DNA of 63,035 nucleotides, the filler included, from Reclinomonas americana ATCC 50394 (Eukaryota): NCBI GenBank assembly GCA_048213135.1. It is 16 parts of 16 records of this genome, joined end to end, with 100 filler letters (N's around TTAATTAATTAA, not from the genome) between each part and the next. Parts side by side here need not be neighbours in the genome. Positions count along the whole stretch, not along the records: positions 1 to 6,796 come from AFZH01019190.1; 15 more parts are not named here. One strand, written 5' to 3'. The notes under the pieces are model-generated. The model was given only the letters and a program-made list of their open reading frames with translations. It made no database searches and was not told the origin of the DNA. Positions 1-54,005 of the stretch are shown here, piece after piece. The translations under genes and the position numbers were made by a program. Positions within the stretch are counted from its first letter, which is position 1. Every line of letters begins with the position of its first letter.

Positions 1-1085
1 CGTCAACTCGATTCCGCCCTCGCTCAACTCGCTCTCCATCTTCAACATCATGCTGCGCTCGTCGCCACCCGACTCGGATCTCTTGCCGTTCCTCGCGCAA
101 GTGCGCATCCCCAAGAGCACGCTTGGTGGCACCGATTACAAGACATTCATCGCCACGCTGGCGCGCGTGCAGCAGTACTTGCCCGTGTGGTACTACTCGT
201 CGCTGGTGCTCGGACGCGCCACAGGCAGCTTCGACAAGATCCTGCTCTTTGCCGCGCAGCGATTCGCACAGGGTTCGTGCCTTTTCCCATGCTACGTTAC
301 CTGTGTTCGTCGCTGAGCCACGTTGCGCAGACATCAAGACGCGACAGGCTGTGGTGTCGGCACTGGTGTATCCGGCATTCATGCTGCTGCTGTCGATCGG
401 CGGCATCACGTTGCTGCTGGCGCGCATTCTACCGCAGCAGATCAGCACGTTCGAGTCGATGGGCCTGCCGGTGCCGGCCAGTCTGGCCTTCGTGAATCTG
501 CTGCTGCAGCGCACCGAGCTCTTCTGGGTGTCGCTGGCGGTGCTGCTGCCGAGTGCGCTGTCGTCGCGCTTGCTGCCGTATCGCACCCACATGCGACTGC
601 AGTACATCAAGCTGCACACGCCACTTGGCCGACTGCGCTTCCTGCGCGACAAGGCCGCCCTGCTCAACGTGCTCTCCATGCTGACGGCCGAGCAGATCAG
701 CTCGCGCCTCCTGCTCGTCTGCACCAACCTCAATGGCAATCCCGTGCTGCAGCACATGCTGGAGAGCATGGCGGCGCGCGCCAAGAGTGGTGCCTCCTCC
801 GAAGAGGTGCTGTCGTACATGCTGACGCAGGCGCACGTCTTCTCGCCCTACGAGGTGGCCTACCTGCAAGCGTGCTTCCTCACCGGCAAGCACGCCACCG
901 TACAAGACGGTCTGCGATACTTGGCCGCCGCCGCCCAACGCGAATACCAGTCGCGACTGGACACACTGCTCGGCCTGCTCAATCCAATCACTACCGTGCT
1001 GGTGGGCATGCTGGTGGCCATGATCGCCTTCCTCGGTGTCGGCCCGCTGGTGCAACTCACCGACGCTGTCTCTGTTAATGCATAA
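1..1085 (+). CDS. gspF: Type II secretion system protein F / PilC family inner-membrane platform protein, 5'-partial, one intron (273-330)
   Basis: Splicing G|GTTCGT...TTGCGCAG joins ORF 50..316 to ORF 123..1085. The product reads LPVWYYSSLVLGRATGSFDKILLFAAQRFAQDIKTRQAVVSALVYPAFMLLLSIGGITLLLARILPQ (end of T2SSF domain 1 plus TM1). The second repeat reads FSPYEVAYLQACFLTGKH...QREYQSRLDTLLGLLNPITTVLVGMLVAMIAFLGVGPLVQL. Both match the duplicated GspF/PilC architecture with 3 TM helices. Confidence 0.88.
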   Translation, partial: STRFRPRSTRSPSSTSCCARRHPTRISCRSSRKCASPRARLVAPITRHSSPRWRACSSTCPCGTTRRWCSDAPQAASTRSCSLPRSDSHRVRAFSHATLPVFVAEPRCADIKTRQAVVSALVYPAFMLLLSIGGITLLLARILPQQISTFESMGLPVPASLAFVNLLLQRTELFWVSLAVLLPSALSSRLLPYRTHMRLQYIKLHTPLGRLRFLRDKAALLNVLSMLTAEQISSRLLLVCTNLNGNPVLQHMLESMAARAKSGASSEEVLSYMLTQAHVFSPYEVAYLQACFLTGKHATVQDGLRYLAAAAQREYQSRLDTLLGLLNPITTVLVGMLVAMIAFLGVGPLVQLTDAVSVNA

Positions 1086-1130
1086 TGAATGAAGTTTCGA
1101 GGTAGGACATCACGGCTATTGATCTTGATC

Positions 1131-2931
1131 ATGCGGAGAGAGAGCACGCTCATCTCACTCGTGCTTGTCTCGCTGCTGTGCGTGTCTATCGTCGCCCATG
1201 TGGAGGGCCAACAGCAGCCGCGCGCAGCACAGCGCTGGGTCACCGACTCGTCGGGCAGCAGTGTGCGGATGCAGCGATTCCCCGATGTGATTTTCCGCAA
1301 CTCCACGAGTGCCTCCACCACTGCGGTGACCGTGGACGTCCACACAGTGTTTCAGTCGATGAATGGGTACGGTGCGGCGCTCACCAATGCCGCCGCCACA
1401 CTGCTGCTGGCCCTGAAACACACGAATGGGACGATGTACTCGGAGGTGTTGCATCGACTGTTTGACGATGCGGGCGAGGCGCGACTGGGTGTGTTGCGCA
1501 TTCCGCTCGGCAGCACCGACTTTTCGCTGGAGGAGTACGTGTACCAGCCGACACGCGACTCGGCTTTCAGCATTGAACACGACATGCAAGATCTCGTGCC
1601 GGTGTTGCACGACATTCTGGCGGTGCAGCCGAACACGCGTCTCCTGTTGGCGCCCTTTACTGCGCCGCCGTGGATGAAGGACAACCCGAGCTTCTACTGG
1701 GGTACGCTGCGCGACGACATGATTGCACGGTACGCGCAGTACCTGGTCGATGCGGTGACTGCCTATCAGAAGGAGCTTGGCGCCTCGACTGTGTGGGCCC
1801 TCACGCTGCAGAATGAGCCGCTGCACGACCCGTTGCGTCACCCAGCTCACGTACGCGACAATGTTTGTTATGCTGAGAGGCTTGACACAGCTGCGATTAC
1901 CCTTGCATGCGCATGATGCCACCGGCGCAGGTTTTTCTGACGAACTGTCTGTCTGTCAGTCGCCTCCACAGTGCTCCTCACTGTGTCTTTGCGTGCAGAT
2001 CAAGTTGGCACCACAGGTGCGCCAGCTGCTGGATGCCACTGGTGCGGGCCGCAGCGTCAAGGTCCTGGCTTACGATCACAAGTTGCGCGACAGCCTTCCC
2101 TCTATCTCCAGGCTGCCTTTTTCACTGTCGTTCATTCATCACGATCAACAGCTGGGACACCATTTGGTACCCCACCGAGGTGCTCGCTGACGCGACGGCA
2201 GGCGCCGCACTGGCGGGTACTGCCGTCCACTGCTACGGCGGCGACGTCTCGGCGCAGTCGGCACTGCATGGCACCAATCCGACGAAGGAGATCCACATGA
2301 CCGAATGCTCCGGCACCACTGGCGCTCCCGTCTTCAAGGACAACATGAACTGGTGCGACACGTGCACTCCAAGAGCGGCGATTACCCTCTTACCTCACTC
2401 GCGTGCCGCCTCACCAGGAACTGCGCCAATCTGTACCTCGGCGGAGCACGAAACTGGGGCCAGACGGTGTTGCACTGGAACTTGGCACTCGATCAGAACT
2501 GCGGACCGCATCTGGGCGGATGCAAGAACTGCCGCGGCGTGCTCACGCTGCATCGACCGGCGTGGGACACGGCGCGCGTGCCGCAAGCTGTGGACGGCGT
2601 GCAGTACGAGGTCGAATACTACGGACTGTTTCGTCTCTAAAACACTCGTCTTGATCTCCTCCGACGTGCACCTCACCCACCATGCCAATGCAGTGCTCAC
2701 ATGAGTCGCTTCGTGCGCACCGGGTACCAGCGTGTAAGCACCACGGTGACACCCACGGACTGCATCCTGGCCGAGTCGTTCTCCGACGGCACCACCACCG
2801 TCACCACAATCATCAACAATCACTGCAGCGCGCCCGTCGACGTTGCACTCGTGCAAGGCGCCAACGGAGGCACTGCCCTGGTCGCTGCCACTCCACCCGG
2901 CATGACCACACTGACGTATCCCATACTATAA
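1131..2931 (+). CDS. Glycoside hydrolase family 30 (glucosylceramidase / beta-1,6-glucanase-like), secreted, 5 introns
   Basis: Signal peptide; motifs FQSMNGYGAALT, LRIPLGSTDFS, TAPPWMK, LTLQNEP (acid/base), YDHNWD, AVHCYGG, IHMTECSG (nucleophile), WNLALDQNCGP, YYGLAHMSRFVR after splicing. Confidence 0.92.
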
Positions 2932-2999
2932 CGCCGCAATAAAACGCGTTTCTGTAGTCAAACTTACGTACATACGTATTTTTATCATCGCGCGGAGAG

Positions 3000-4370
3000 A
3001 TGTTGTCTATAACGCGAAGGCTGTTCTCTTCGTTGCGCAGCTCGTTGGGCATTGCTTCCTCACACTCACTCACTCACTCACTCACTCTGCACGCAGTCAC
3101 TCCACACTGGCCACTGGCACTCCACTGGCCGAGCAAGTTGTCACAGTCATTGGTGGCAGTGGCTTTCTCGGTCGCGCTGTGGTCGCCGCTCTCCACGACC
3201 GTGTGAAAGAGGTTAAGAGAGAGAGAGTAAGAGAGACAGTCTCCACTGTGTGAGTGCCGACGTGTCGTGCTGCAGATTCGCGTGGCCTCGCGCAAGCCCG
3301 ATCCCTCCAAGTTCACTGAACATCCGCGTGTGACGTGTGTGCCTCTGGATGCCACTGATGCACGCGGTGTGATCACTGCCACACAGGTGTGACGATAGAG
3401 AAGAGTGAGAGTCGTCGAGCGTGCCTGATTCTCTCTCTCTCTCGCTCCCTGTTTGTGTGCGTGAAGGGATCGACATCGGTTGTCAATCTGGTCGGCATTC
3501 TGTACGAGACTCCGCAACAGTCGTTCCTCGACGCGCATGTCAAGATCGCCCGCAATGTGGCCGAGGCCTGTGCGGCCAACCGTTGCGTTCATCCTGCTGC
3601 ATGCTCCTGTGTTTTTGAAGCTGTCCGATGATGGATGGGCTGCAGGCGCCGAGAATCTCGTGCATGTGTCCTCGATTGGATCGGAGACCGATGCACCCTC
3701 GCGCTACTCGCAGACCAAGGCGCAGGCGGAGCGCGAGGCCAAGGTCATCTTCCCCAACATTACCATCTTGCGCCCGTCGATTATCTTTGGAGAGGAGGAC
3801 AGCTTCTTCAACATGTTTGATCAAATGGCCAAGTACTCGTTCATGCTGCCGCTGATTGGCGGTGGTGAGACGCGTTTCCAGCCTGTGTACGTGCAAGATG
3901 TGGCACAGGCGGTGCTCAAGTTGCGTGCGCCGATGCAAGCCACCCATACGCGTACGCAGTTGTGCCTTGTCTTGTTCATTGCGTCTTGGCAGAGTGTTGT
4001 CGGATCCGACGACTCACGGCAAGACGTTTGAGATTGGTGGCGCGCGTGTGTACACGTTCAAAGAGCTGCTGGAGTTGATGCTTCGTGTGACCAATCGGAC
4101 ACGTCTCCTCGTGCCGGTGCCGTTCGCGGTGGCCGCGCTGCAGGGTCGCGTGCTGGAGATGCTACCAGGCCGCCCAGTTGCGTTTTCTGCAACGTGAGAT
4201 CCCTTCCTCATCCTCCCTCCTCACTGCCTGCCACGCAGCTACTGACCGTGGACCAAGTCGAAAGTCTGAAGCGAGACAATGTGGTCTCGCCGACGGCGCG
4301 CACCTTGTCGGACCTGGGAATCGTACCGCGGTCGGTGGAAGACCTGCTGCCGACGTATCTCAAGCCGTGA
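3000..4370 (+). CDS. NDUFA9: Complex I NDUFA9-family atypical SDR with mitochondrial presequence-like N-terminus
   Basis: MLSITRRLFSS N-terminus; VTVIGGSGFLGRAVV, VVNLVGILYE, VHVSSIG, YSQTKAQAE, ILRPSIIFGEED, GGGETRFQPVYVQDVA, LLTVDQV motifs across about 6 introns. Confidence 0.88.
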
Positions 4371-4655
4371 GCGCGGAATCGTTTTTCTCTTGGCCCGTCC
4401 CCTCCCCTCCTCTCCCCTCCCCTACTCCTCCTAGACACTATGCAGTAGCTCATGTTGTGCGCGTGCGTGTGTGTGCCCCGCAATGTAGTTGACACACGAC
4501 AACGGCACAAAAACAACCAAACACGCACGTTATACTCTACAAGCTACCACCACCACGGCCTTAAAAGTTAACGGACGCCAAGCATACAAGAACACAAAAG
4601 AAAGGAGGGCACACGGAAACAGAGAGAGAGAGACACACAAATCATCATCACCAGA

Positions 4656-4690
<35 letters not shown>

Positions 4691-4694
4691 CTGG

Positions 4695-6585
4695 TTATTG
4701 AGATCCACTGGCCATGGAGCCGCCACTGGCCAACAGCAGCGCCTGTGCGGCGGGTGGCGGGGGTGCCAGGTCGGGGTGGAACGAGCGCAGCTCCTCCCAC
4801 AGGTGTGCCTTGATCATGTCAGTGTTCAACTCAATCACCTCGAAGCTGAAGTCGAGCTTCTCCGGCGCCTCGACCTCCTCATCCAGATTCCGGATGGGCG
4901 CAAAGTACGGGTGCTCGAGTGCCTGTTGGATTGTCATGCGTTCCTTGGGGTGGAATCGCATCATGCCCAGCATCAGGTCGAGGGCTGCGGCGTGCAAGTG
5001 AGTACAAGGGGCATGCACCAACGAGGGAGTCTTGTCGCCAGTGCAAACCTTCAGGCGGTGCATTCGGCATCAGCGTGCTGAAATCGGCGGCCTTCTTGAC
5101 GGGCTGTCGAGCCAGCCAATCCAGAGCCTGCGTCGGTCACAGAAGGGGGGTGAGTGGCAAGAATGCATGAGGAGGAGAGACAAGAGGTGTCTGACCTCGC
5201 GCGAGCCAATGTCAGCAATGCTCTCCCTCGATGGTGTGCCCACCAGCGAGCAAATGACCATGATCTGGTCCAAGTCTGCGGTCCCACGAAGTGAGTACGG
5301 GATCCCGTCGAGCGAATACAGGAGACGAAGGGAGAACGCAACAGGACTTGCCCGGAATCAGCGGTCGGCCAGTGTAGGTCTCGGCAAAGATGCACCTGTT
5401 ACCCGGCGAGTGAGTAAACACAAGTGATGGGAGAGAGAGAAAGAAGGGGGTAACACCACGGGACGAAACGCTGCACTCCACACATCGATCGCTTCGCCGT
5501 ACGTCTTGAGTTGCATGAGCAACTCCGGAGCACCTACAAACACGCAGAAGGTGAGCACGTGCGACAACGGCTCGACATTATTTGAAGCAGTTCATCAGCA
5601 TCATCATCACGCAACGATACCCTGCAGTCGTGAGAATCGAGAGTGAGACACGCAGAACATGATGCATGAACGGGGGCAACAGGAGGAGACGCAACATCGA
5701 GTCGTGACGTACAGGGTCATTTCGACCTTCTTCTCCTCCTCGTAGTGCATGGAGCGAGCCAAACCAAAGTCGCACAGCTTCAAATGACCGTCTTCCGAGA
5801 TCAGCAAGTTGCCGGGTTTCCTGTGTGTGAAATTCACGTTCAGACTGGACTTCAAGACGCGACGCGGATGCCAAAAGACGCAACAGATCGCGATGCAAGA
5901 TGTTGCACGAGTGGCAGTACTTCAATCCCTTGAGCAGTTCGTACATCCATAGCCGACGGTTGTGTTCCGACACCATCGACGGACCGGCCTTGAGCTCCTT
6001 GGCCAGATCGCGATCACCAAGCTCAAACACAAAGTACAGCTGCTTGAAGTCGCTGCGCCGTGAATCACACGAGCAAGTGAGGACGCAGAGCAGCCACCTG
6101 CGTAACACAGCAACAACAACAAAACGCAACTCGTACGACTGCGGCCGCGCCATGTCGAACAACTCAATCACATTGGCGTGCTTCAGGTGACGCAGAATCT
6201 TGACCTCGCGCAGCAGACTGCCAGAGGAAGGGTAAGCACAACGCGGCGTGAGATAATTAGCAACAGAGAAGAAGAGGGGGCGCACCGCTTGGCCTCGGGA
6301 GCACTGCGGAACACGCCATCGACTCGCTTGATGGCCACATCGCGACCTGTGCGGAAATCCGTGGCTCGCCTGTGACATGCAATGAGTGGAAGACACACAC
6401 AGAGTGAGCATGACAGAGAGAAACGCAACACGACAACACCAAAGGCGCCGGCTCCGAGCACCTCATGGATCTCATAGCTGTCATGACGGAAAGCATGCTT
6501 ACTGTCAGTTTGATGCCACTTTGTGAGAGAGAGAGAGCGGGTCTGTGTGCAAGTGGACTCACCGCGTCGGAAGTGTCCACTCTGC
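4695..6585 (-). CDS. MAP kinase (CMGC), 5'-partial, about 10 introns including a 6-nt microexon
   Basis: Spliced: WTLPTRYEIHEVLGAGAFGVV, VAIKR, LLREVKILRHLKH, HRDLKPGNLL, CDFGLAR, MTLYVTTRWYRAPE, IDVWSAACIFAE, ALDLMLGMMRFHPKERMTIQQALEHPYF. Confidence 0.93.
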
Positions 6586-6796
6586 CAAGCAAGAGAGAGA
6601 GAGAGTGGCGTGAGAAAGAGGCCATGGTCGTCCGGACAGCACACACACGAAACACACACATTAACACAAGCAGCACACGAGACACGCGCAAGCACAGAGA
6701 GGAGAGAGCATAGTGCGGCAGAAGCAGAGCAAAAAGGGGGTGTTGCAGTGCAAAGACAAAGCAAAACACACGCGCCATTTTTCCCGTGTGACAAAC

Positions 6797-6896
6797 NNNN
6801 NNNNNNNNNNNNNNNNNNNNNNNNNNNNNNNNNNNNNNNNTTAATTAATTAANNNNNNNNNNNNNNNNNNNNNNNNNNNNNNNNNNNNNNNNNNNN
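6797..6896. other. Assembly gap linker (first of 15; others start at 9939, 14014, 15704, 18217, 21361, 23446, 25164, 28071, 30552, 35831, 50430, 54877, 57275, 60425)
   Basis: Identical 100-nt N-TTAATTAATTAA-N spacer with stops in all six frames; artificial. Confidence 0.98.
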
Positions 6897-9800: not shown

Positions 9801-10392
9801 TTGGCCTTTGACGTAGCCGCGTTGCGAACTCGCAATGTCGTCTTCTCGCTGGCTTCGCTGGTGCAACCGTCGCTGCCGCCGCCGCCCACGCGATTCTCTG
9901 CCGACGGTACGTCATCGTCAGTGTGTGGTTTTGCGCTTNNNNNNNNNNNNNNNNNNNNNNNNNNNNNNNNNNNNNNNNNNNNTTAATTAATTAANNNNNN
10001 NNNNNNNNNNNNNNNNNNNNNNNNNNNNNNNNNNNNNNGGGAGTGGGGGCATGTCTCCGCCACTGCCTCCGTCGTCGCTGCCGCTGTGTGCGCCTCTCGT
10101 TGGCACATCTGCGGCCATTGCCGGCGCGCCTAATCTGCCGGGTGAGTCCAGTGTGTGTCTGTCTTCGTTGGTTGGCGCCACAATCACTGACGTTGCTTCT
10201 GGTCGTTTTTTAGGCACTCCGACCGGTGCATCACCAAAGCCGTACGCACGCCGATCGAGCAGTCCTTCGCCTTCACCAGTGTTGCGTCCAGCACCACCGG
10301 CACTACCGCCGCCACTGGTCGCCACCACCACCGCCACCACGACTTCCGTGACGCGTTCTGGCGGACCATACCGACCTTCGTCGCAGTCGTGA
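6897..10392 (+). CDS. Large multi-exon uncharacterised protein with a possible ADP-ribosyltransferase-like domain; 5'-partial; Pro/Ser-rich C-terminus probably lies beyond the gap
   Basis: Canonical introns give a continuous frame: RPVHRCSVEALASIARVGEILS...DRDLDTHQHVFAIYGP...YGAVALIISPDVMKHPD...RPW...DAHSCLEAHLPPRVPVEWVERVVL. Confidence 0.6.
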
Positions 10393-10512: not shown

Positions 10513-13500
10513 TCACGCCACTGGGGGTGGCGGAGTTAAAATCCACATTGCACCGCTCTGCTCGGCGACCACGATTGGATCTCGGGTGATCGAGTCGGTC
10601 TCCGTGTTGATGGTCCACGAGCTGGAGGGTTCACGTGAGAGCGGAGCCGGCTTCATGTCGACGCGTGGCGACGATTCTGCACTCTTGATGCCGCCGCCGC
10701 TGACGCCACCGCTGCTCAGCAGGCGCGCTGAAGTGTTGACCTTGGTGGTCGTGTCCGCATGCCGCAGTCGTGGCGGAGGTGGAGTCGGCGTCTTCCCCGC
10801 CGATCGCATGCTGTCGACGGCGCTGAGTGAATCACGTGACTCGGACGACTCGTTGTCACTGTCGGCATCGTCGCCACCACCGACGGCTCGAATAAGCGAG
10901 TCGCCATCCCAGGCCATGGGCTTGATCAGCGCACCCGTCGAGTGCACTGTCGCCGCGCGTCTGCGACTCGGCGACTGACTGCGCGTCCGTTTGACCGCAC
11001 CGTCGTCGGCCGGCAGCGCCAGCTCGTCAGGATCCTGCGTCCACATGGCGTCGATGGTGATTGACCGCGAGTGATGTGGGCGGTGATGGCCACCTTCGTT
11101 GAGCTTGGCGCGTGTTCCTTGCGGAAGCAGGCGCGGTCGAGCTGCCGCTGCAATGACGTCTGGCAGCGGCGCCGTGATCGCGGTGCCGTTTCCGCGCGGT
11201 GATCCGCCGGCACTGAGAGAGGTGCGGCGAATACCACTGTCGTCCATGGAGAGCGACGAGGCACTGCGGCGTCGGCGATCGCGCTTCTCTCGCAGCTTCT
11301 GCTGCAACACCGGGAACTGGTTGGGATCGACCATGCGATCCGACGCGCGGCTGCAGTCGGAGAAGGCCGATTCGGAAGGTGCGTGTCGCGCGAGTGGCAA
11401 CAACATGCCAGGTGTCCGTGGCGAGCTGGGTGCACTGAGCGAGTACGCCGGTGACAGTGGCATACTGGCGGCGTAGCCAGGTGGATACAGGCTGCCATGC
11501 ATCGACGGCGAGAAGCGCGAGTTCGACGATGGTGTGATCAGCGGCGAGTCGAGCAGCAAGTCGCGCGACATGATCGACAATGGTGGCGGCGGCTGCGCCT
11601 GCATCTTGGCCGGCATGTGTCGAAGCGACTGCATCTGTTGCTGCTGCTGTTGCATCTGCTGCCACTGCTGCTGTTGTTGTTGCTGCTGCTGCTGCCATTG
11701 CTGTTGTTGTTGTTGTTGCTGTTGCTGCATTTGCCATTGCTGCTGCTGTTGCTGCTGCTGCTGTTGCTGCTGTTGCTGCTGCTGTTGCTGCTGCTGTTGT
11801 TGTTGCTGCCACTGCAGCAGCTGCTGGTGTTGTTGCTGCATCTCCATCTGCTGCGTGTGGCGAAGACTGCCGAACAAGAGCTGGTTGCTGCCGACTGCCG
11901 GCACCATCGGCGACATGAGGTTGGCTGGCACCTGCATGAACGGATCCGTCACTGTCGACAGCGTCTGCGACGGTGGATCGTTCGACCGCATGCTGCGGCT
12001 TGCCGGGAAACCACGCGGACGCGGCGGTGATTTGATCGGGCCGGTCTCTGTGAGTTGGGAGGTGGTTGAGAATCACTGTCTCCCCCAGAACGTGCGGCAG
12101 ACGTGCGCGCTGCGCAACTCGTCTCACTCGTCGTCCGTCGCACACTTTCGTGGGAGTTGTCGAGTATTCCCGTCTCGCCGAGTCGCATGGGCGGCTAATG
12201 CAGCACGATGACGGTGGTGAGTAACACGCACACAAGAGACACAATCAGTCACATTCACACACGCTCTCACCAATGTGTTGTGTCGTCGGCGTCCCTGCGG
12301 CTGCGGTTGCTGTTGTGGTATCGACTGGGTGGGTGCCAACATGCTATCATCAGGCGCACTGAACGTGGGCTGCAACAATCCCGAGTCGTCGTCGGCTGCG
12401 GCGCCGCTGTCGACGAGACCATCCACAACCAGTTCTCCGTCCATGCCAGCAACGCCACTCTCCGAGTCGTCCACCATAAAGTGTGCCGTCGACTGCCCAC
12501 CGTTCTGTTGCTGCTGCTGCTGCAGTTGCTGCTGCTGCAGCTGCGCCTCCTCTCCAGCATTGACAATCACCACACGTCCACTGTTGGAGCGCGACGGACC
12601 GGGGCTGCCTCCTCGGGAGAGTGCACGAAGAATTCCCGTCGGCAGCTTGCTGGTCGACGTCTCGGCACTCGACGCTGCTGTGATGGCGTTGCGGACCGTG
12701 TTAACAAATTGGGTCGCACGCGCCGAGTCGTACCCGGCCGCCGCTGCGGCAGCGCCACCACCCGTACTCAGAACCGATGACGTGACGCTGGCACCGCGCG
12801 GCGAAGTGCTTCGCGAAGCCGACCGCAGATAGTGGCCAATGATGGTGAACGCCACACCGCCGGACGCACTCTGTCGCAGGCTTCCCGACGCCGAGGCCAG
12901 ATCGTCGCCGTCCGCCTGTGTCGCTGGGTCGTCGGCACGGCTCGCGGTGGGCGATGTCTCGTCGAATGAAGCATCGTCGCCACCATCGGGACCGGCAACC
13001 AGCATGGCACGTCGGCGCAGATATCGCTGACGCGTGTTCTTCAAGCGGTCACGCAGCGAGTCGCTGATGGTCTTCCAGTGGTCCACATTGTCGGTGATCA
13101 GTTCGTCACTCGAGAGCTCCGCGGCAACAATGGAATCGTCGAGAGTGTCGTTGAGGTCGACTGGTGCGCCGCCGCCCAGTACAATGTCGTCCACGTGTCC
13201 GTGCAGCCACGGGTGCTCCAACATTTGCTCGAGGGTCAGTCGTGCAGAGCCGTCCTTGACCAGGAGGCTCTTGAGGAAGTCGATGCACAACTCGCTCACC
13301 AGACCCTCGGGGTAGTGCACTCTGTGGGTTTTGTTTGCACACTGTAAGCAACAACTACCGCAGCCGGGAAACGGTCGTGCAGAGTGGGGTTAGACGGCAC
13401 GACACGCAACTCCTTGGTCTTGATTTCGCGATACATGCCGATTTCGCTGTCGGCAAAGAACGGCAGCTTGCCAAAGAGCATGACATACAGCGTGACGCCC

Positions 13501-14013: not shown

Positions 14014-14113
14014 NNNNNNNNNNNNNNNNNNNNNNNNNNNNNNNNNNNNNNNNNNNNTTAATTAATTAANNNNNNNNNNNNNNNNNNNNNNNNNNNNNNN
14101 NNNNNNNNNNNNN

Positions 14114-16211
14114 TCGTGTGCATCACTTGTGGCGCGACAGACGCGGAGGGGCTCGCCAAACCATTTCCTGCACACCCTCAAACGTCTCGTGCATGAACTC
14201 AAACAACTTGAGGACGACCGTCTGCAAGAATCTCCAGTGTTCCACCAGAAACTCGGGGTACTGGCCCACAACATACATGATGTTGGTGGCCACCACCGCC
14301 TTGTTCTCCTTGCCACGACGCCCCTCGCACAGATGAAGCAAGTCCTTGATCACCGACACCAAGAATCTCTTCTCGGCATCCGGGTCTGCGGGGAAACAAG
14401 GGGCAAGGGTGAGTACTCTCTGATAATTCGATCCAACTGTGGGGCAGGCACACACACCCATGGCTCCACTGATGGCACCCACGGCCCAGCACAAACTGTT
14501 CAAGCTGTCCCAACTCGTGTCGGTGCCAGTCATCTGCCACGCGAACAGGGCGGTTGGTCGACGGCATCAAGAAAGCAAGAGGAAATGAGAGAATGAAACA
14601 CGTACCTGGTGGCCGAGCTTCTCCTCGATGATGGCCACCGTGTCGGCCGAGTCCAAGTGCGTCAGATACACCAGCGTCTCATGCAGCGTCTTGTACCGCT
14701 GAATGGATTCCACATCTTCCAGCTGCTCTCTTACCAACTGGCCAGTGTCGTCCTCCACGAGTCGCACCTGCGATGCCGTCAAATGAGTACGCCACGACGC
14801 GACAGCGGTGGGTGACGACGTGTGACGCAATCAGCACCAAACAACAAACCTCTTCTGGCTTGGCCATGCGAGAGATCAGCAGCATGCGAACGTGAGACAG
14901 CACGGCGGCGTACTTCTGTTTCCGAATGGCACCCGGGTCACGCCCGGCGCCCAGCAGGAGCCCGCGCCCCTGTGACGGACGTGGTGCCGAAGAAGCGTGC
15001 AAGTTGGCCGTCTACGAGAGGAGAGAGAAGCGGGGATGAGACGACCTTCAGCACAGCGTGCAGATGTGTGTGCTTGGGGTGAAACGCACCAAAAACAGCC
15101 AGTACTCGACACACTCCATGAAAATGTCAATGTCATCGATGCTGGTGAGCGACACCATGTACTGGTGACCGGCCACCACCAACTCGACCAACTCGGGCAC
15201 ACTTTCCAGTTGGCCCAGATGTGCTCGGAAGATGGCCGAGAAGAAATGCACCAGGTTGCGCAGGAACTCACGCTCCTCCTCCGTGGCCGACGAATACGCC
15301 GAAGTGTAGTCTGCTCACAAGGAGGACCAACAGTCAACACGTCGACCCCTCACTCTCGTTTCCCGCCCATAAACATGCACACACACACACCGATCGAGGT
15401 CGGCAGGAACTCGAGCAGCTGGCCCACCACGCCAGCGTACAATTGCGCAAACTTGGGGGCATACTCGCCGCCTGGATCTTGGCCGGCGATCTCAATCAGG
15501 CAGATGGTGGTCGGGTTGCGGAAGGACGGGTACATGAAGAACTGCCAGCAAACGCGTAAACAAGCACACACTCAGTGCCGAGCACCACCACGAGGACAAG
15601 TGGCGACTTGACGCGGACCTTGTGAACCAGCTGGTCGATCAGCGTGGTGTCAAAGATGAAGCCCGACGGAATCCACGACAAGAACTGATGCAGCGTGCGC
15701 AACNNNNNNNNNNNNNNNNNNNNNNNNNNNNNNNNNNNNNNNNNNNNTTAATTAATTAANNNNNNNNNNNNNNNNNNNNNNNNNNNNNNNNNNNNNNNNN
15801 NNNGTCGACCACGGTCCACGAGCGCACGTCGTCCTTGAACTCGTTGAGGATTTTCGATGCCGCATCAATCTGTAGTCAAAAAACACAATGAGTTAACCGA
15901 CTCGACGTCTCTCTCTCTTATCATTGGCAGGGGCAGTGCATGCGTGTGTGTGCGCGACAGAGAGAGAGAGTGTGTGTGAGAGAGAGAGAATGTGTTGCGC
16001 GCGCGCGCGCGCACGTCACTGTAGATGAATCGCACACACATAGAGGAAACTCAACATGCGCAGGCACTCCACTGTGCATAGCCGAGCACACATGCTCCAA
16101 CAACGGGATCATCTCGGCACTGCCGGCGCCCGTGTTGACAACAGCCTCCAACATGCCCATGAGCGCCACGCGACACTCCTCCCACGAAGACGGCGCTCCA
16201 ACGTTCGACAT
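14114..16211 (-). CDS. XPO1: Exportin-1/CRM1, N-terminal half, interrupted by the gap at 15704 and truncated at 14114
   Basis: [117 protein letters not shown]. Confidence 0.95.
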
Positions 16212-18027: not shown

Positions 18028-18553
18028 TCACATTTCATTGTTGGTGATTCGCGACCGAACACGCTGCATGAGTCTCCTCATGAAGGTCACGTTGTGTTGC
18101 GTGACCAGCACCTGCGCACAGACAGTGAGTAGGCGAAGAATGAGAGAACAGAGTGCGTGTCGCATTCACCTGCGCTGTGCCCTCCTTGGCCTTGAACAGG
18201 TGATGCAGATACGCTCNNNNNNNNNNNNNNNNNNNNNNNNNNNNNNNNNNNNNNNNNNNNTTAATTAATTAANNNNNNNNNNNNNNNNNNNNNNNNNNNN
18301 NNNNNNNNNNNNNNNNTTGTCAGCGTCTTGATCGCCGCGTTGGTGGCTGCACACACGAGTGAGAAAGTCAGCGTGAAAGGACAGCTTGCAACAGTGCGTG
18401 AGGAGGCAGACCGACAGGCACAAAGTTAGGCGTCTCAATGATCCCATGTGGAGTGTGCACGCGGCCCACACGCGCACGACTGCGACTGCTCTCATGCAAC
18501 ACCTCGAATCGAAAGAAGAGTCGGCGCTGTACTCTCCACACATGTGAGAACAT
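18028..18553 (-). CDS. tgt: Queuine tRNA-ribosyltransferase (TGT), chlamydial-type; middle lost in the gap at 18217
   Basis: N-term [57 protein letters not shown]-term [39 protein letters not shown]. Confidence 0.88.
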
Positions 18554-18610
18554 TTGTGTTTTTTTCGCTCGCAAATTCGTGCGTCTGTGTTTGTGTCTGT
18601 GAGAGAGTGA

Positions 18611-20769
18611 ATGATGGGCGGAGCATCGAGCAGTGATCGACGCACAGGCCGAGGCGAGGTTGAGGAGCGACCGCGACCTCGGAATGTTGGCGTGTTGGCA
18701 CTGGAGGTGTACATTCCGCACACGTATGTGTCACAGAGAGCACTCGGTGAGTGAATGAGTGCGCGTGCTCTCTGTGTCTCTGGCGTGTTCTCACGGTGCT
18801 GGCAGAGAAACACGATGGAGTCTCCGAAGGTCGATACACAGTGGGTCTTGGTGTCACTAATATGGCGTTCTGTGGCGACGATGAGGATGTCATCTCCATG
18901 TCGCTCACTGGTGAGTGAATGAGAGAAGCAGAAGAGTGTGTGTGTTGAGCAGAGACAAGCGAGATGCATGTTATTTTTTCGAGTCTTCTCTTTTCCTATT
19001 CCGGTCTCTGTGGGTGTGCGTACGTGCAAGCGCGTGTGTATATGTCGCGCACGATTGCAGTTGCTGCGTTAATAGTCTGGTGATTGTCTTTTTTTCCCCC
19101 CTCGATGAACAGTGGTGTCGACCCTGTTCGAAAAGTATGGCGTGTCGGCCGGCGATGTGGGTGTGCTGGAGGTCGGCACCGAGTCGCTGCTCGACAAGTC
19201 CAAGTCGGTCAAGACCGAGTTGATGCGCGTGTTTGAGGCCGCGGGCAACTTTGATGTGGGTGGCGCCGACAACCTCAATGCGTGCTACGGTGGCACGGCG
19301 GCGCTGTTTCATGCGGTGCAGTGGGTGGAGAGCAGTGTGTGGGACGGGCGGTATGCGCTGGTGGTGTGTGCGGATGTGGCCACGTATCCGCCAGGCAATG
19401 CGAGGCCGACAGGCGGCTGCGGAGCGTGTGCCATGCTGGTCGGACCCGATGCGCCGCTGGTGTTGGAGCCAGGCACGTCTCGCTCTGATGTCTCTGTCGC
19501 TTCTCCTGCTTCTCACTTCCTCATGCACTCACAGTGCGTTCGTGTTATGCACGCAACGTGTACGACTTTTACAAACCGGAGCCGATGAGTGAGTATCCGA
19601 TCCTCGACGGCCAGCTGACGCTCATCATGTACATGCAAGCGCTGGATTACTGCTACGAGCGTGTGTGTGGGCGGCTGCGAGAGATTGTTGCGTGTGGGGG
19701 ATTGTAGGCCATGTGTGTGGGTGGATGAAGGGTTGTTCACACGCTCTTTCGTGCAGGAAAAGAAGCCCATTGGCACGGCCGACATTGACGTGTTCCTGTT
19801 CCACTGCCCGTTTCTGAAATTGATTCGGAAAGCCACTGGTCGATTGGTGCGCCACCGCCTGTGTATCGCGTGGGAGAGAAGACAGAGTCGGTTACTGAGT
19901 GTCATGGTGGCGTGTGTGTGCGCAGCTGTATCGGGACTGGCGTGCGGGCATGTTGAAGCCGCCGCCGGAACATCCCGTCATCCCCTTGCTGCTCGGAGCT
20001 GCCGTCGAGGAGACGTATGGCAATCGAGAATTCGACACGCTGATGCTGGAGCAGAGGTGTGTGTGTGTGCGCGCCTAACACGTATGTGTGTGCATGCCTC
20101 TCCTCACTGTCGTCTTGCAGCGAATCACTGTACGCGGAAAAAGTGGCGCCGGCCACTCTGCTCAGCCAGGAGGTTGGCAACTCATACACCGCCTCGTTGT
20201 ACATGAGTCTCGGTGCACTCGTGTACAAGTACGGGGAGCAGTTGGTATGTCTGCGCACGCACACACACAACGGGTTGTAGAAGCTGTTCACCCATGCGCT
20301 CTCGCGCGCAACGCAGGCGACCCGTCGCATCGCGCTGTTCTCGTACGGCTCCGGCTTGTGTGCCGCCATGTTCACAATCCGTGCTCGCTCCACGACCTCG
20401 TCCGTGTTCTCGCTGGCCAACATTCAGGAGCAGGCAAGTCACGAGAACGCGACACTTCGGCGGTCTTCTGTCCTCACTTCCGCCCTCTCTCCTCAGTTGT
20501 GCCTGGAGGAACGACTGCGATGTCGAGAGGAGATCGATCCGCGAAGGTACGAGGACGCCATGGCTCTACGCTCGGCAGCATACGGCAAGTGCTCGTACAC
20601 GCCACGGTGGTCAACCGCGGTGAATCCATGCACGGGCGTGTGGTACCTGACCGACATTGACGAACGACATCGGAGATCGTACCGCAGATGTCGCGGAACA
20701 GGTGCCGCCGATCTGCCCGCTCCCGCCCACCTCACAGCGTCCTCAGCAGCCGCAGGCAGTGCTCCCTGA
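18611..20769 (+). CDS. HMGCS: Hydroxymethylglutaryl-CoA synthase (eukaryotic type), 8 introns (two GC-AG)
   Basis: [77 protein letters not shown]. Confidence 0.96.
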
Positions 20770-20816
20770 CATAAAATCGTCCTGCAGTCCCTCTGTCACT
20801 CAATCTGTTTGCAACC

Positions 20817-21360
20817 ATGTCAGGCCGCACACTCGAGGGCAAAGAATCCGTAATGATCCTGCGCGTGCCTCCGCGCCTCAAGAAGCGCATCGATGCGCGC
20901 TTGAGTGAACCACGCGACTTTTACAGAGATGTCTCGCTCCAAATCAATAGTGCGCTGTCAAACCTGCATTCGTGTGTGTGTGTGTGTGTATGTGCGTGTC
21001 TCACGCGCACTCTCTCTCTCTCTCTCTCTCTCATGTCATAGGTGACGACGGACATGCGACATTCGCGTTTGAGGGAGAGCGCTTTGCGGCGCGAGTTGTC
21101 AATCTGCCGGGTGTGGTGGAGACGTACAAGACCTTTGACAGTCGATCATACTACAAGGCGCAAGACATTGGCTCGGTGAATGAGAGTGAAATAGAGAGGG
21201 AGACTGTGCAAGCCAACTCACGGCTTTTGTCGTGCAGATGATGATTGTGAGCGAGGACCCGGAGGAAGTCGAAAAGTTGCCAGTGGACTACCCGGATGGA
21301 CTCACATTCCCGCTGCAAGGCATCCGCTCGCAATGGGATCGCAAGAAGATGAAGGTGCCG
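20817..21360 (+). CDS. TAF7: TFIID subunit TAF7 (TAFII55 N-terminal domain), 3'-truncated by gap
   Basis: MILRVP...ARVVNLPGVVETYKTFDSRSYYKAQDIGSMMIV...YPDGLTFPLQGIR. Confidence 0.88.
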
Positions 21361-22029
21361 NNNNNNNNNNNNNNNNNNNNNNNNNNNNNNNNNNNNNNNN
21401 NNNNTTAATTAATTAANNNNNNNNNNNNNNNNNNNNNNNNNNNNNNNNNNNNNNNNNNNNCATTCAGAGTGTCGCAGGAAGAGGTTTATGTGAGGGCGAG
21501 AGAGTGGGCGCAAAAGTGTGACTTACCATTTGCTCACAACGTGCGCGTTGATGGGGCGATGTCGTCGGCATCCATCAGGTGCCAGTCGCGTCCATCATTG
21601 ATATTATTTTTGGTTTCTTCATGCACGCAGGAAGGCACTGTGCAATTGTGAACGCGGACACAAGGTTGGACAGCGCACAGATTGCGGCGTCGAGGTGCAA
21701 CTTGACTTTCCGCATCGGCCGGACCACAGCGATATCAATGCATGCACGCCTTCTTTTGACGAGTGTACATGCCGTGTGCACCTCGCAGCTCCGCAGAGGC
21801 GTGGAGATGCACACGCGGGTACTGTGCCTGACGTGTTTGGCGCGTTTCAGAATCACCCCAGGATCCCAATTTGGACCAAAATATTATGTAAGGTGACGTC
21901 GAAATCAAATCCGCCAGTGCGGACAGCTTATAAAATCCGACAGTCTGCCCCCACCCAAATCAATTCTCTCATTTTTTCCTGTTCGTGAGCGCAGACAACT
22001 CATCCTTTTTATTTTTTCCTTTACTTTGC

Positions 22030-23672
22030 ATGGCTTCATCATCCGATCGCAGTGATTTCAAGCCCTGGTTGCCGACCGAGGGCGATGTGAGGGACGAGCT
22101 GGCCGTGCTCGTCTGCTCGGCGCTGCTGAGCGAGCCGCGCTACTACGACAACGGCGACCTGAGTGCGCAGGCCAGCGAGATCCGCCGCGTGGCCCGTGCG
22201 TGCGCCGCCACAGAGGAGATCGACGCCGACTTTTTGCTGTGTCTGGCGCGCTACGTCAGAGTCGACCTGGGCCTACGGGCCTCCTCGTGCTTCCTGCTGG
22301 CGCTGGCGGCTGCAGATGAGGAGTGTGCACCGCGCTGCTCACGATTTGTGTCGCACTACGTGCCTCTGGTGTGCCAGCACCCAGGCGACCTGCTGGAGCT
22401 GGCCAACAGCGTGACGGCGCTGTCCGGGCGCGACAAGTGGCTGCCGTCGTGCATTCGACGGGGCGTGTGCCTCGCCCTGCCGCGGTACGACGAGTACCAG
22501 CTGGCCAAGCACAACCGCGACAAGGTCCGGCGAGCGAAGGAGCGTCAGCGCAAGGCGGCCAAGAAGCAGGCACAGCAGCAGGAGCTGGAGGCAGCTGCTG
22601 CCGCGGCGGCGGCTGTGGCGCCGAAGGGCAACAAGGCCAAGGCCATGGGGAAGAAGGACCAGCGACAGAAGGTCGCAATGAAGGCTCGCGGCAGCATTGC
22701 GGCCATGGCGGCTCGTGCACAGACCGCCAGTGCCGCCGGTGCAGACGGCAGCGGCAGTGGCAGTGGCAGTGCGCGCCAGCCGTGGACGCTGAAGCAGCTG
22801 GTGCGCACTTGCCACGCCCACGAGCCGTGGAACCTCGTGTCGAAGATCCTGGGCAAGCGCGACGAGACTACGGGCCAGCGCCTGGCACTCGCCACGCCGC
22901 AGACGTGGGAGACGCAGGTGGCCGCCCACGGCAACACGAGCGCAGTGTGGGAGGAGTTGCTGCGGGCGAACAAGCTGCCGCTGCTCGCCACCCTCCGGAA
23001 CCTGCGCAGCCTGCTCACGGTGACGCCAATGGTGGACGCGAGCCTGTACCGTGCCACTGTGCTGGCTCGGCTCACCAGTGAGCGGGCGGTGGGCATCTCG
23101 CGGCTGGCGCCGCACCAGTTCCTGGCGGCCGTGCACGTCGTCGGACAGCTCGCGGACTCGGCCGAGTTGTCTGCGAGTGCCGCGGCGTTGGCGCGGGAGA
23201 CGACGGAGGCGCTGGACACGGCGTGCGCGTGCGCTGCCAACCGCAACTTGCCTCAGCTGCGCGGTCGGACGGTCGTGTTTTGCGACACCAGCGGCTCCAT
23301 GGGCTCGGTGTGCAACACGGGCAGGGCGACTGGCCTCGGCCAGCAGCAGCGGCAGAGAGGCAATCGTGCTGCCGGCGCCACGCACGTCACCTGCCGCGAC
23401 GTGGCGGTGTTCCTCAGCCTGCTGATCAAGTTTGCCGGCGGCGATNNNNNNNNNNNNNNNNNNNNNNNNNNNNNNNNNNNNNNNNNNNNTTAATTAATTA
23501 ANNNNNNNNNNNNNNNNNNNNNNNNNNNNNNNNNNNNNNNNNNNNGAATGCCGGCACCGCAGCCGGCGCTGTCGTTGCTCGCGTTGGAGACGAGCAGGCC
23601 ATGGAGGTGGAGGAGCTCGAGGGAGCAATGAGTGTGGACGAGGAGGGCGAGGCTGATGAGGCGGTCGTGTAG
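22030..23672 (+). CDS. TROVE + vWA domain protein of TEP1/p80 type; gap at 23446; probable C-terminus 23546-23672
   Basis: FLLCLARYVRVDLGLR, YDEYQLAKHN, TLKQLVRTCHAHEP..ILGKR, PQTWETQVAAHGN..VWEELL..KLPLLATLRNLR, GRTVVFCDTSGSM (MIDAS). Confidence 0.85.
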
Positions 23673-51896: not shown

Positions 51897-54005
51897 ATGA
51901 TGCTGCCGGAGAGACCGCCTGGTGTGACGCTGCGCATGTTGCGAGCGAGTGATACGCCGTTTGTGGTGTCGCTGGCGCCCAAATTCATTCGACCGGGAAT
52001 GGTTGGCGTGTGTGTGTGCGTGTGTTCTCGCTTTCAGCATTGCTCTCGTCGTGCTCACGGTCTCTCTTTGGTAGTCGGCAGAGAAGCGTGCGGAGTGTGA
52101 ACGGCCTACGTCGTGCCTCTTCCTGGCGAATGTGCTGTTGACACAGGTGGAGGAGACGGTCCGCGATTTGTGCAGCGTGTGCGCCGGTGACGGTGTGCAG
52201 GCGTGGGGCATTCATCCGGGTCGGTCGGCCATGTCTGTGCGCTTCTCCAGCGTGCAAGAGGCGTGCGCCGTCAAGGCTGCCATCGACGAGGGTCGTCTGG
52301 TGAATGGGCGCAAGTCGGTGTGCGCGTTTTGTGAGCTGCAGGAATTCGACTTTTGTGCGGCACTGGCGCGGCACCTGCCCACGGGAGAGCGGCAAGAGGA
52401 TGTGATGGAGTCGGAGCATGTGCGAGTACCGGGGCTTGTCTTCATTCCCAACTTTGTCAGCGAGGCTGAGGAGGCGGAGTTGCTGCGGGCGATTGACGAC
52501 TTGCCGTGGCACGATCTCAAGTCGCGCCGTGTACAACACTACGGCTATGCCTTCGACTACAAGGTCAACAACGTCGACGTATCGCAGCCGCTGCCGGGTG
52601 GATTGCCCGAGTGGACGCAGTCGGTGGCGGCACGCATGTGTGCAGATCCGCAAGTGGTGAGCTGAGGTCGTTACCGACCAACCACATGCCGTGTGGGTGT
52701 GCGTCTCACACCGTGGTCTCGCCTCTCGCAGATGCCGTTTGAGCCGGACCAGTTGACAGTGAACGAGTACTTGCCGGGTGTGGGCATTCGACGCCATGTG
52801 GATACTCACTCGGCGTTTGAGGATGGCATCGCATCGCTGTCGCTCGGCAGCTCGACGGTGATGGAATTTCGCCATCCCGAAACGCAGGTGCACAAGCAAG
52901 TGCATCTGCCTCGACGCTCGCTGGTGGTGATGCTGGGCGAGTCGCGTTACGTGTGGACACACGGCATTGCTCTGCGCCTGTCGGACCGAATTCGTGGTCG
53001 TCGCATCGTGCGCTCCCGGCGTGTGTCACTCACCTTTCGCCGTGTGCGGCCGGACAAGAATTGTCAGTGTGCGTACCCTGCACATTGTGATTCGCGGTCG
53101 TCCTCCATGTCGGCCGTACCGTCGGCAATGTCCATTGGCGACGTTGATCATCGGCCGGGAGTCGATGATGGCGATGGTCGCATGTTGCCGTCACTCGAGC
53201 GGCAGCATGTGTGGGACTTTTACAATGCGATTGGCAAGCACTTTTCCGCCACACGATCTGTGCCATGGCCGGGCGTGCAGCGCTTCGTGGCGGAAGAGCT
53301 GCCTGTCGATTCGCTGGTGCTAGACATTGGTTGTGGAAACGGTCGGTACATGGAATGTGTACTTGCACGAGGCGATCTGAGCTGTGCTATTGGGTGCGAT
53401 GCGTCGCGCACGCTGCTGGAGGTTTGCATCGAGCGTGGCTTGCAGCATGAGGTGTTGGCCGACTGCTGCGCTCTTCCGTTCCGCTCGGCGGTGGCCGATG
53501 CTGTGCTGTGTATTGCCGTCCTGCATCACATTTCGACCGAGTCGCGTCGACTGCGAGCGCTGCACGAGCTGTTCCGTGTGTGTCGCCCGAACGGATCAGT
53601 GCTGATTTATGTGTGGGCGTTTGAGCAGGTTTGGTGATCAATCACAGGGCGATGATCGTCGTGCGCGAGTGAGTGCATGTACTAACTGCGCGTATGGTCG
53701 CTTCGCAGGATCGCCAGTCGATTCACCACTTTGAGAATGCCGACTGCTTTGTTCCATGGCACATGCCGTCGGCCTTTGCCGTCGACACGGGAGGCAGTGG
53801 TGATCAAGAGGGTGCAGCCGTCGGAGGTGGTGACGGGGCATCGTCGTCGGCGAGTGGAGTCGACTTGAAACTGCACCAGCGGTACTGTCACGTGTACCGC
53901 GAAGGAGAGTTGGAGAGTCTCATTCGACAAATACCCGGGGTAGAGATTGTGCGTGTGTATTACGAGCGCAGCAATTGGTGTGTGCTGGCTCGCCGAGTAG
54001 CTTGA
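51897..54005 (+). CDS. ALKBH8: ALKBH8 tRNA wobble-uridine modifier (RRM + 2OG-Fe(II) dioxygenase + Trm9 methyltransferase)
   Basis: RRVQHYGYAFDY, PDQLTVNEYLPGVGIRRHVDTHSAF, RYVWTHGI, RVSLTFR, CQCAYPAHCDS, HFSATR..PW, DIGCGNGRY, IAVLHHIST, YVWAFEQ, RYCHVYREGELE. Confidence 0.95.

Follow-up and report, generated by a model that had tools for sequence, protein, structure and literature searches.

The window, a 63,035-nt stretch of DNA, opens with the 3′ part of a gene for a GspF/PilC-type protein, which occupies positions 1-1085 on the plus strand. Reading-frame analysis of this strand showed that frame 2, open from the second base, reaches a stop at 316 when it is read on through the intron described below, and that frame 3 is open up to a TAA at 1083-1085. 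Excision of positions 273-330 fuses frames 2 and 3 via a split GAC codon (D) and leaves the GspF frame intact across 341 codons. Exon A (2-272), in open frame 2, contributes 90 full codons and the first base of the split codon. The intron (273-330) is 58 nt long and in phase 1, with GT at 273-274, AG at 329-330, the donor GTTCGT, and the acceptor CAG. Exon B (331-1085) completes the split D codon with two bases and then runs for 250 codons to the stop. The 5′ end of the gene, which amounts to 96 codons in the published protein model, lies past the start of the contig and was not found on the other 15 contigs of the window. The G+C content is about 61%, which is not diagnostic of origin.

The window contains 30 runs of exactly 44 N, arranged as 15 pairs, each of which flanks the 12-mer TTAATTAATTAA. 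It consists of 16 contigs, each 1.6-14.5 kb long, with artificial N44-TTAATTAATTAA-N44 spacers between them at 15 places (e.g., 6797-6896, 9939-10038, and 14014-14113). Because the pieces are separate contigs, linkage arguments are valid only inside each of them, and only positions 1-6796 (contig 1) are physically linked to GspF.

Directly downstream of GspF on the plus strand is a GH30 gene (Pfam E value of 2.2e-17). Its first in-frame ATG, at 1089, lies 3 nt past the GspF stop, and from an alternative ATG at 1131, 45 nt past that stop, the N-terminus is hydrophobic and signal-like. At least one intron, near 1850-2000, interrupts the GH30 gene. Contig 1 also carries an NDUFA9-family ORF (3465-4028, plus strand), whose family was confirmed by protein search, and protein-kinase ORFs (5581-6462, minus strand). 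The first-pass annotation of this DNA had placed GH30, NDUFA9, and MAPK genes on the GspF contig and had regarded them as eukaryotic. The GH30 gene, the NDUFA9-family ORF, and the protein-kinase ORFs all fall within 1-6796, and the split frames on this contig favor eukaryotic neighbors, but the protein search does not show a eukaryotic origin for the NDUFA9-family ORF. Its matches, at 46-61% identity, extend over 40-67% of the ORF, and those among the best 120 that are named to species are all alphaproteobacterial proteins of the "complex I NDUFA9 subunit family." The open frame probably overstates the length of the true exon of this gene.

We searched exons A and B separately against Pfam and NCBIfam. 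Exon B (333-1082, 250 aa) matched the GspF model TIGR02120 with an E value of 1.8e-17 over model positions 159-401 of 401, and matched Pfam T2SSF with 34.5 bits, above the gathering score of 25.2. The second T2SSF domain (PF00482) was located at 729-1037 on the plus strand, corresponding to exon B residues 133-235 (E value of 2.3e-08). Exon A by itself yielded no Pfam or NCBIfam match at E ≤ 1. At the position of the motif, it can be aligned to the first repeat in 13 bacterial-type rows, and the start of that repeat lies outside the window. Exon A probably encodes the C-terminal portion of the first T2SSF-like repeat, in which the bacterial GExxGxL has given way to a diverged motif, and exon B covers the second T2SSF repeat together with the first and the C-terminal transmembrane segments. 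The initial reading of the gene as encoding a protein of GspF/PilC architecture was therefore borne out by both family models. At 63.7 bits, exon B does not reach the TIGR02120 equivalog cut-off of 424 bits; judged by its sequence, GspF here is a diverged relative of bacterial GspF, not an equivalog.

Three hydrophobic stretches were found in the window protein, all in exon B, using Kyte-Doolittle averages over 19-residue windows with a threshold of >1.6. The first (345-437, plus strand; exon B residues about 5-35) is likely the first transmembrane helix. The second (519-575, plus strand; residues about 63-81), likely the second transmembrane helix, is the weakest of the three, with a single window slightly over the threshold at 1.64. 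The third (963-1070, plus strand; residues about 211-246), with windows reaching 2.53, is likely the C-terminal transmembrane helix.

The sequences GRATGSFD and CFLTGKH, which the first reading had taken as signs of strong divergence, are present; in the alignment, they stand opposite the two bacterial (A/V)GExxGxL motifs, one per T2SSF repeat. Both motifs, as defined on the 13 bacterial-type rows, are replaced in the window protein. The same divergence occurs in all four other eukaryotic-type GspF rows of that alignment and is thus a marker of the clade rather than a peculiarity of the R. americana gene. Since exon A has no family match, exon B scores far below the equivalog cut-off, and GExxGxL is lost, the biochemistry of the protein may differ from that of bacterial GspF.

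The spliced protein is colinear with eight homologues over the exon junction with zero gaps (alignment A1), and this gap-free alignment confirms the intron by homology. The spliced junction also equals the published R. americana GspF at that point (PMC8134430). Removal of 273-330 is needed for colinearity both with the homologues and with the published model, as expected of a nuclear gene with a spliceosomal intron, and the 58-nt GT-AG intron proposed from the raw sequence therefore stands.

We mapped the exons of HMGCS (18317-21360; contig 6, not the GspF contig) with a homologue by tblastn and then read the junctions. A GTNNGT donor was present at the end of homology in 4 of 5 HMGCS junctions (GTGAGT twice, GTGTGT, and GTATGT), and the two HMGCS introns that could be fixed at both ends were 59 nt and about 202 nt long. 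At 58 nt, with the donor GTTCGT and the acceptor CAG, the GspF intron agrees with this loose pattern, which comes from a small sample of five junctions. The heptamer GGTTCGT showed no enrichment in the window, with 9 occurrences seen versus 7.96 expected, a result that is uninformative either way. The claim that the GspF donor is of the host type is thus weakly favored by the fit to GTNNGT and gains nothing from heptamer counts. A de novo intron scan that joined long open frames returned 5940 candidates; it was too noisy in this G+C-rich DNA and was dropped. The remaining HMGCS junction, that of the intron at 19473-19534, has no in-frame GT donor, and a 62-nt GC-AG excision (donor GCACGT) alone keeps the homology. 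It looks like a GC-AG intron, with sequencing error as a possible alternative.

To place the protein among its relatives, we used a word-indexed search of 5.8 billion proteins, with identities calculated over exon B. The search returned 13 proteins at E ≤ 1e-3. Eight of these are eukaryotic-type GspF proteins (E ≤ 1.6e-75, 51-61% identity), and the remaining five are bacterial-type PilC/T2SSF proteins (24-27% identity, E values from 1.6e-7 to 8.1e-4). Alignment A1, comprising both exons and the eight homologues, has a mean column identity of 56%. When the A1 profile was run against 1.84 billion representatives, seven proteins were found at E ≤ 1e-30; after them, matches of approximately full length appeared only at an E value of 3e-17 and weaker. 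Against solved structures, the same profile found one weak chain only, the PilC of PDB 3jc8 (E value of 1.1e-5). The last third or so of one Malawimonas-like GspF representative (P0015) reads as unrelated low-complexity sequence, probably reflecting a frameshifted or unspliced gene model in the source.

We then built a quick maximum-likelihood tree in IQ-TREE from exon B only, with the window protein, 10 eukaryotic-type rows, and 38 bacterial-type rows, of which 5 are named and the other 33 were assumed to be bacterial from length and score. The window protein fell inside an 11-row eukaryotic-type clade that was separated from the 38 bacterial-type rows with an SH-aLRT of 100 on both sides. 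The branches joining the two sides measured 4.43 and 1.54 changes per column. Within the eukaryotic-type clade, the window row forms one arm of an unresolved four-way fork. The phylogeny thus places the gene inside the eukaryotic-type clade and not within bacterial PilC.

A mitochondrial system derived from the type II secretion system (miT2SS) was described by Horvathova et al. (2021, Nat Commun 12:2947; PMC8134430), whose Supplementary Data 1 lists a GspF of R. americana with a length of 437 aa and the accession "N.A." A 13-residue word from exon A, compared with the supplementary spreadsheets of that paper, gave a single match, in the R. americana row of the GspF block. Exon A, the split-codon D, and the first 213 of 250 exon B residues equal the published R. 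americana GspF at 304 of 304 positions. This comparison was made by eye over 400 of the 437 published residues, the first 96 of which are upstream of the window; for the last 37 residues, identity rests solely on the matching total length, as the 96 upstream and 341 encoded residues add up to the published 437. The published row carries no accession, which may be why the search of 5.8 billion proteins gave no identical entry. The TMHMM count listed for R. americana GspF is 3 (PMC8134430). Its listed targeting predictions are weak: TargetP 1.1 calls it mitochondrial with the lowest reliability (class 5), and TargetP 2.0, MitoProt, and MitoFates do not call it mitochondrial (PMC8134430).

Supplementary Data 1 also contains R. 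americana rows for GspD, GspE, and GspG. [quoted passage not shown] Nine short motifs of GspD, GspE, and GspG had no match within the 16-contig window. Ten peptide words from six other ORFs of the window, the WD40 ORF included, were absent from the supplementary tables of PMC8134430, as covered by the first 400 characters of each cell. Collectively, these results indicate that positions 1-1085 very probably represent the 3′ 341 of 437 codons of the nuclear miT2SS gene for GspF, cut by the contig end, from R. americana or from an organism that is indistinguishable from it at the level of this gene.

Two other origins for the gene were weighed against this assignment. The T2SSF family is overwhelmingly bacterial, and of the 5119 matches of the A1 profile at E ≤ 1e-3, nearly all have bacterial length and score. 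A bacterial PilC/GspF gene, whether from a contaminant, from an endosymbiont, or from a lone recent transfer into the host, is nevertheless next to impossible at this locus: the GspF frame requires a 58-nt GT-AG intron, the best bacterial identity is 24-27% as opposed to 51-61% to eukaryotic GspF, the gene sits within the eukaryotic-type clade at an SH-aLRT of 100, and flanking ORFs of the same contig have split frames. The intron, the identities, and the clade likewise uphold the initial argument against bacterial contamination. It is unlikely that the DNA comes from another organism with the same GspF protein sequence, for example a closely related histionid jakobid or a second strain of Reclinomonas. 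The match to R. americana is known from protein only, over 304 residues, and the published row is without an accession. However, the next-closest known GspF proteins are 51-61% identical, whereas the published one is identical at 304 of 304 residues and has the same predicted length, which indicates the same species. Such an origin would leave the verdict on novelty unchanged, since the host would still be a jakobid.

A third explanation concerns function rather than origin, namely that the gene is a decaying relic derived from GspF that no longer serves in secretion. The loss of the bacterial GExxGxL motifs, the weak targeting predictions reported for R. americana GspF (PMC8134430), and the lack of a known miT2SS cargo in the literature consulted would agree with this. 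We consider it extremely unlikely, because the 341-codon frame is intact, the mean column identity of A1 is 56%, and strict co-occurrence with 26 other families has been reported (PMC8134430). In addition, the diverged motifs are conserved in the five aligned eukaryotic-type GspF proteins, whose named members are malawimonad and jakobid, and this conservation points to selection.

With the assignment to R. americana GspF, neither the gene nor its protein model nor its host is new. The first-pass annotation, working only from the raw sequence, had been right about both the highly diverged GspF and its intron, and its proposal that the organism carries a miT2SS agrees with the GspD, GspE, GspF, and GspG listed for R. 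americana in PMC8134430. The match to the T2SSF family, the position of the gene outside bacterial PilC, and the other Gsp components listed for the species all favor a genuine miT2SS GspF. The suggestion that the host might lie outside the known lineages did not hold; it is the jakobid Reclinomonas americana, a published carrier. Because this jakobid is already listed as a carrier, the known distribution of miT2SS does not expand. R. americana is among the species in which miT2SS was first described (PMC8134430). The window adds only how the 3′ portion of its GspF gene is organized in the genome: a phase-1 intron of 58 nt interrupts the coding sequence, and very little DNA separates the stop from the gene that follows.

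If it acts like bacterial GspF/PilC, the R. americana protein would span the mitochondrial inner membrane with three helices and serve there, in oligomeric form, as a polytopic platform. In this role, GspF would link the action of GspE, an ATPase on the matrix side, to the building of the GspG pseudopilus. The pseudopilus, in the intermembrane space, would in turn push cargo through the GspD pore of the outer membrane, if the bacterial scheme applies. In a bacterial two-hybrid assay, GspF of the malawimonad Gefionella interacted with itself and with GspG1 (PMC8134430). GspC, GspL, and GspM are reported missing from the eukaryotic sets, and the GspF row of Naegleria gruberi has an "M" in the proteome column of the table (PMC8134430).

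Comparison with known GspF proteins showed graded similarity. No difference was seen between the window protein and the published R. americana GspF over the residues compared, the window being without the first 96 codons. GspF of Malawimonas jakobiformis (MT460912.1; P0001) and the mitochondrial GspF of Andalucia godoyi (KAF0853007.1; P0006) belong to the same clade, with 57% and 53% identity over exon B, respectively. Both have the same diverged motifs as the window protein and are also listed with three predicted transmembrane helices (PMC8134430). They come from other species, however, and the window row occupies its own branch of the four-way fork. Heterolobosean GspF (e.g., Naegleria gruberi XP_002682534.1) is in the same clade and is the group with the highest identities to the window protein (55-61%), but it forms a separate starred subclade of six rows and has longer N-terminal extensions (PMC8134430). 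The sequence listed for Neovahlkampfia damariscottae GspF reads like P0005 from an internal MDIVKF... onward (PMC8134430). Bacterial GspF/PilC (TIGR02120; PF00482; PDB 3jc8) belongs to the same fold family, with three transmembrane segments and, probably, two T2SSF repeats in the same order. It differs from the window protein in its low identity (24-27%), in the TIGR02120 score (63.7 bits for exon B versus the equivalog cut-off of 424), and in both GExxGxL motifs, which are replaced in the window. Unlike bacterial GspF/PilC, the GspF of the window is nuclear and has an intron.

Bacterial type II secretion systems typically export hydrolytic enzymes. The tandem of GspF and GH30 could in principle reflect co-expression and a functional tie, for instance a hydrolase handled by or working with miT2SS, although we regard this as very unlikely. 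The tight adjacency of the two genes is most likely a sign of a compact genome.

The remaining contigs of the window carry other genes. XPO1 (14114-15703) lies on contig 4, not on the GspF contig. For HMGCS, the best 120 of 3267 matches at E ≤ 1e-20 are 56-70% identical; those with names are from animals, fungi, amoebozoans, and algae, with no close relative standing out, and the gene is uninformative about lineage. At 10516-12072 on the minus strand, a 519-codon frame contains a long glutamine run (dozens of Q, with W and M interruptions) between serine/proline-rich flanks and matches no Pfam family. An uninterrupted ORF of 519 codons at 21934-23490 on the plus strand encodes a TROVE domain (Ro60-like, E value of 8e-40) and nearly fills its small contig. 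Finally, an ORF at 52666-53634 on the plus strand combines 2OG-Fe(II) oxygenase and methyltransferase domains in an ALKBH8-like arrangement.
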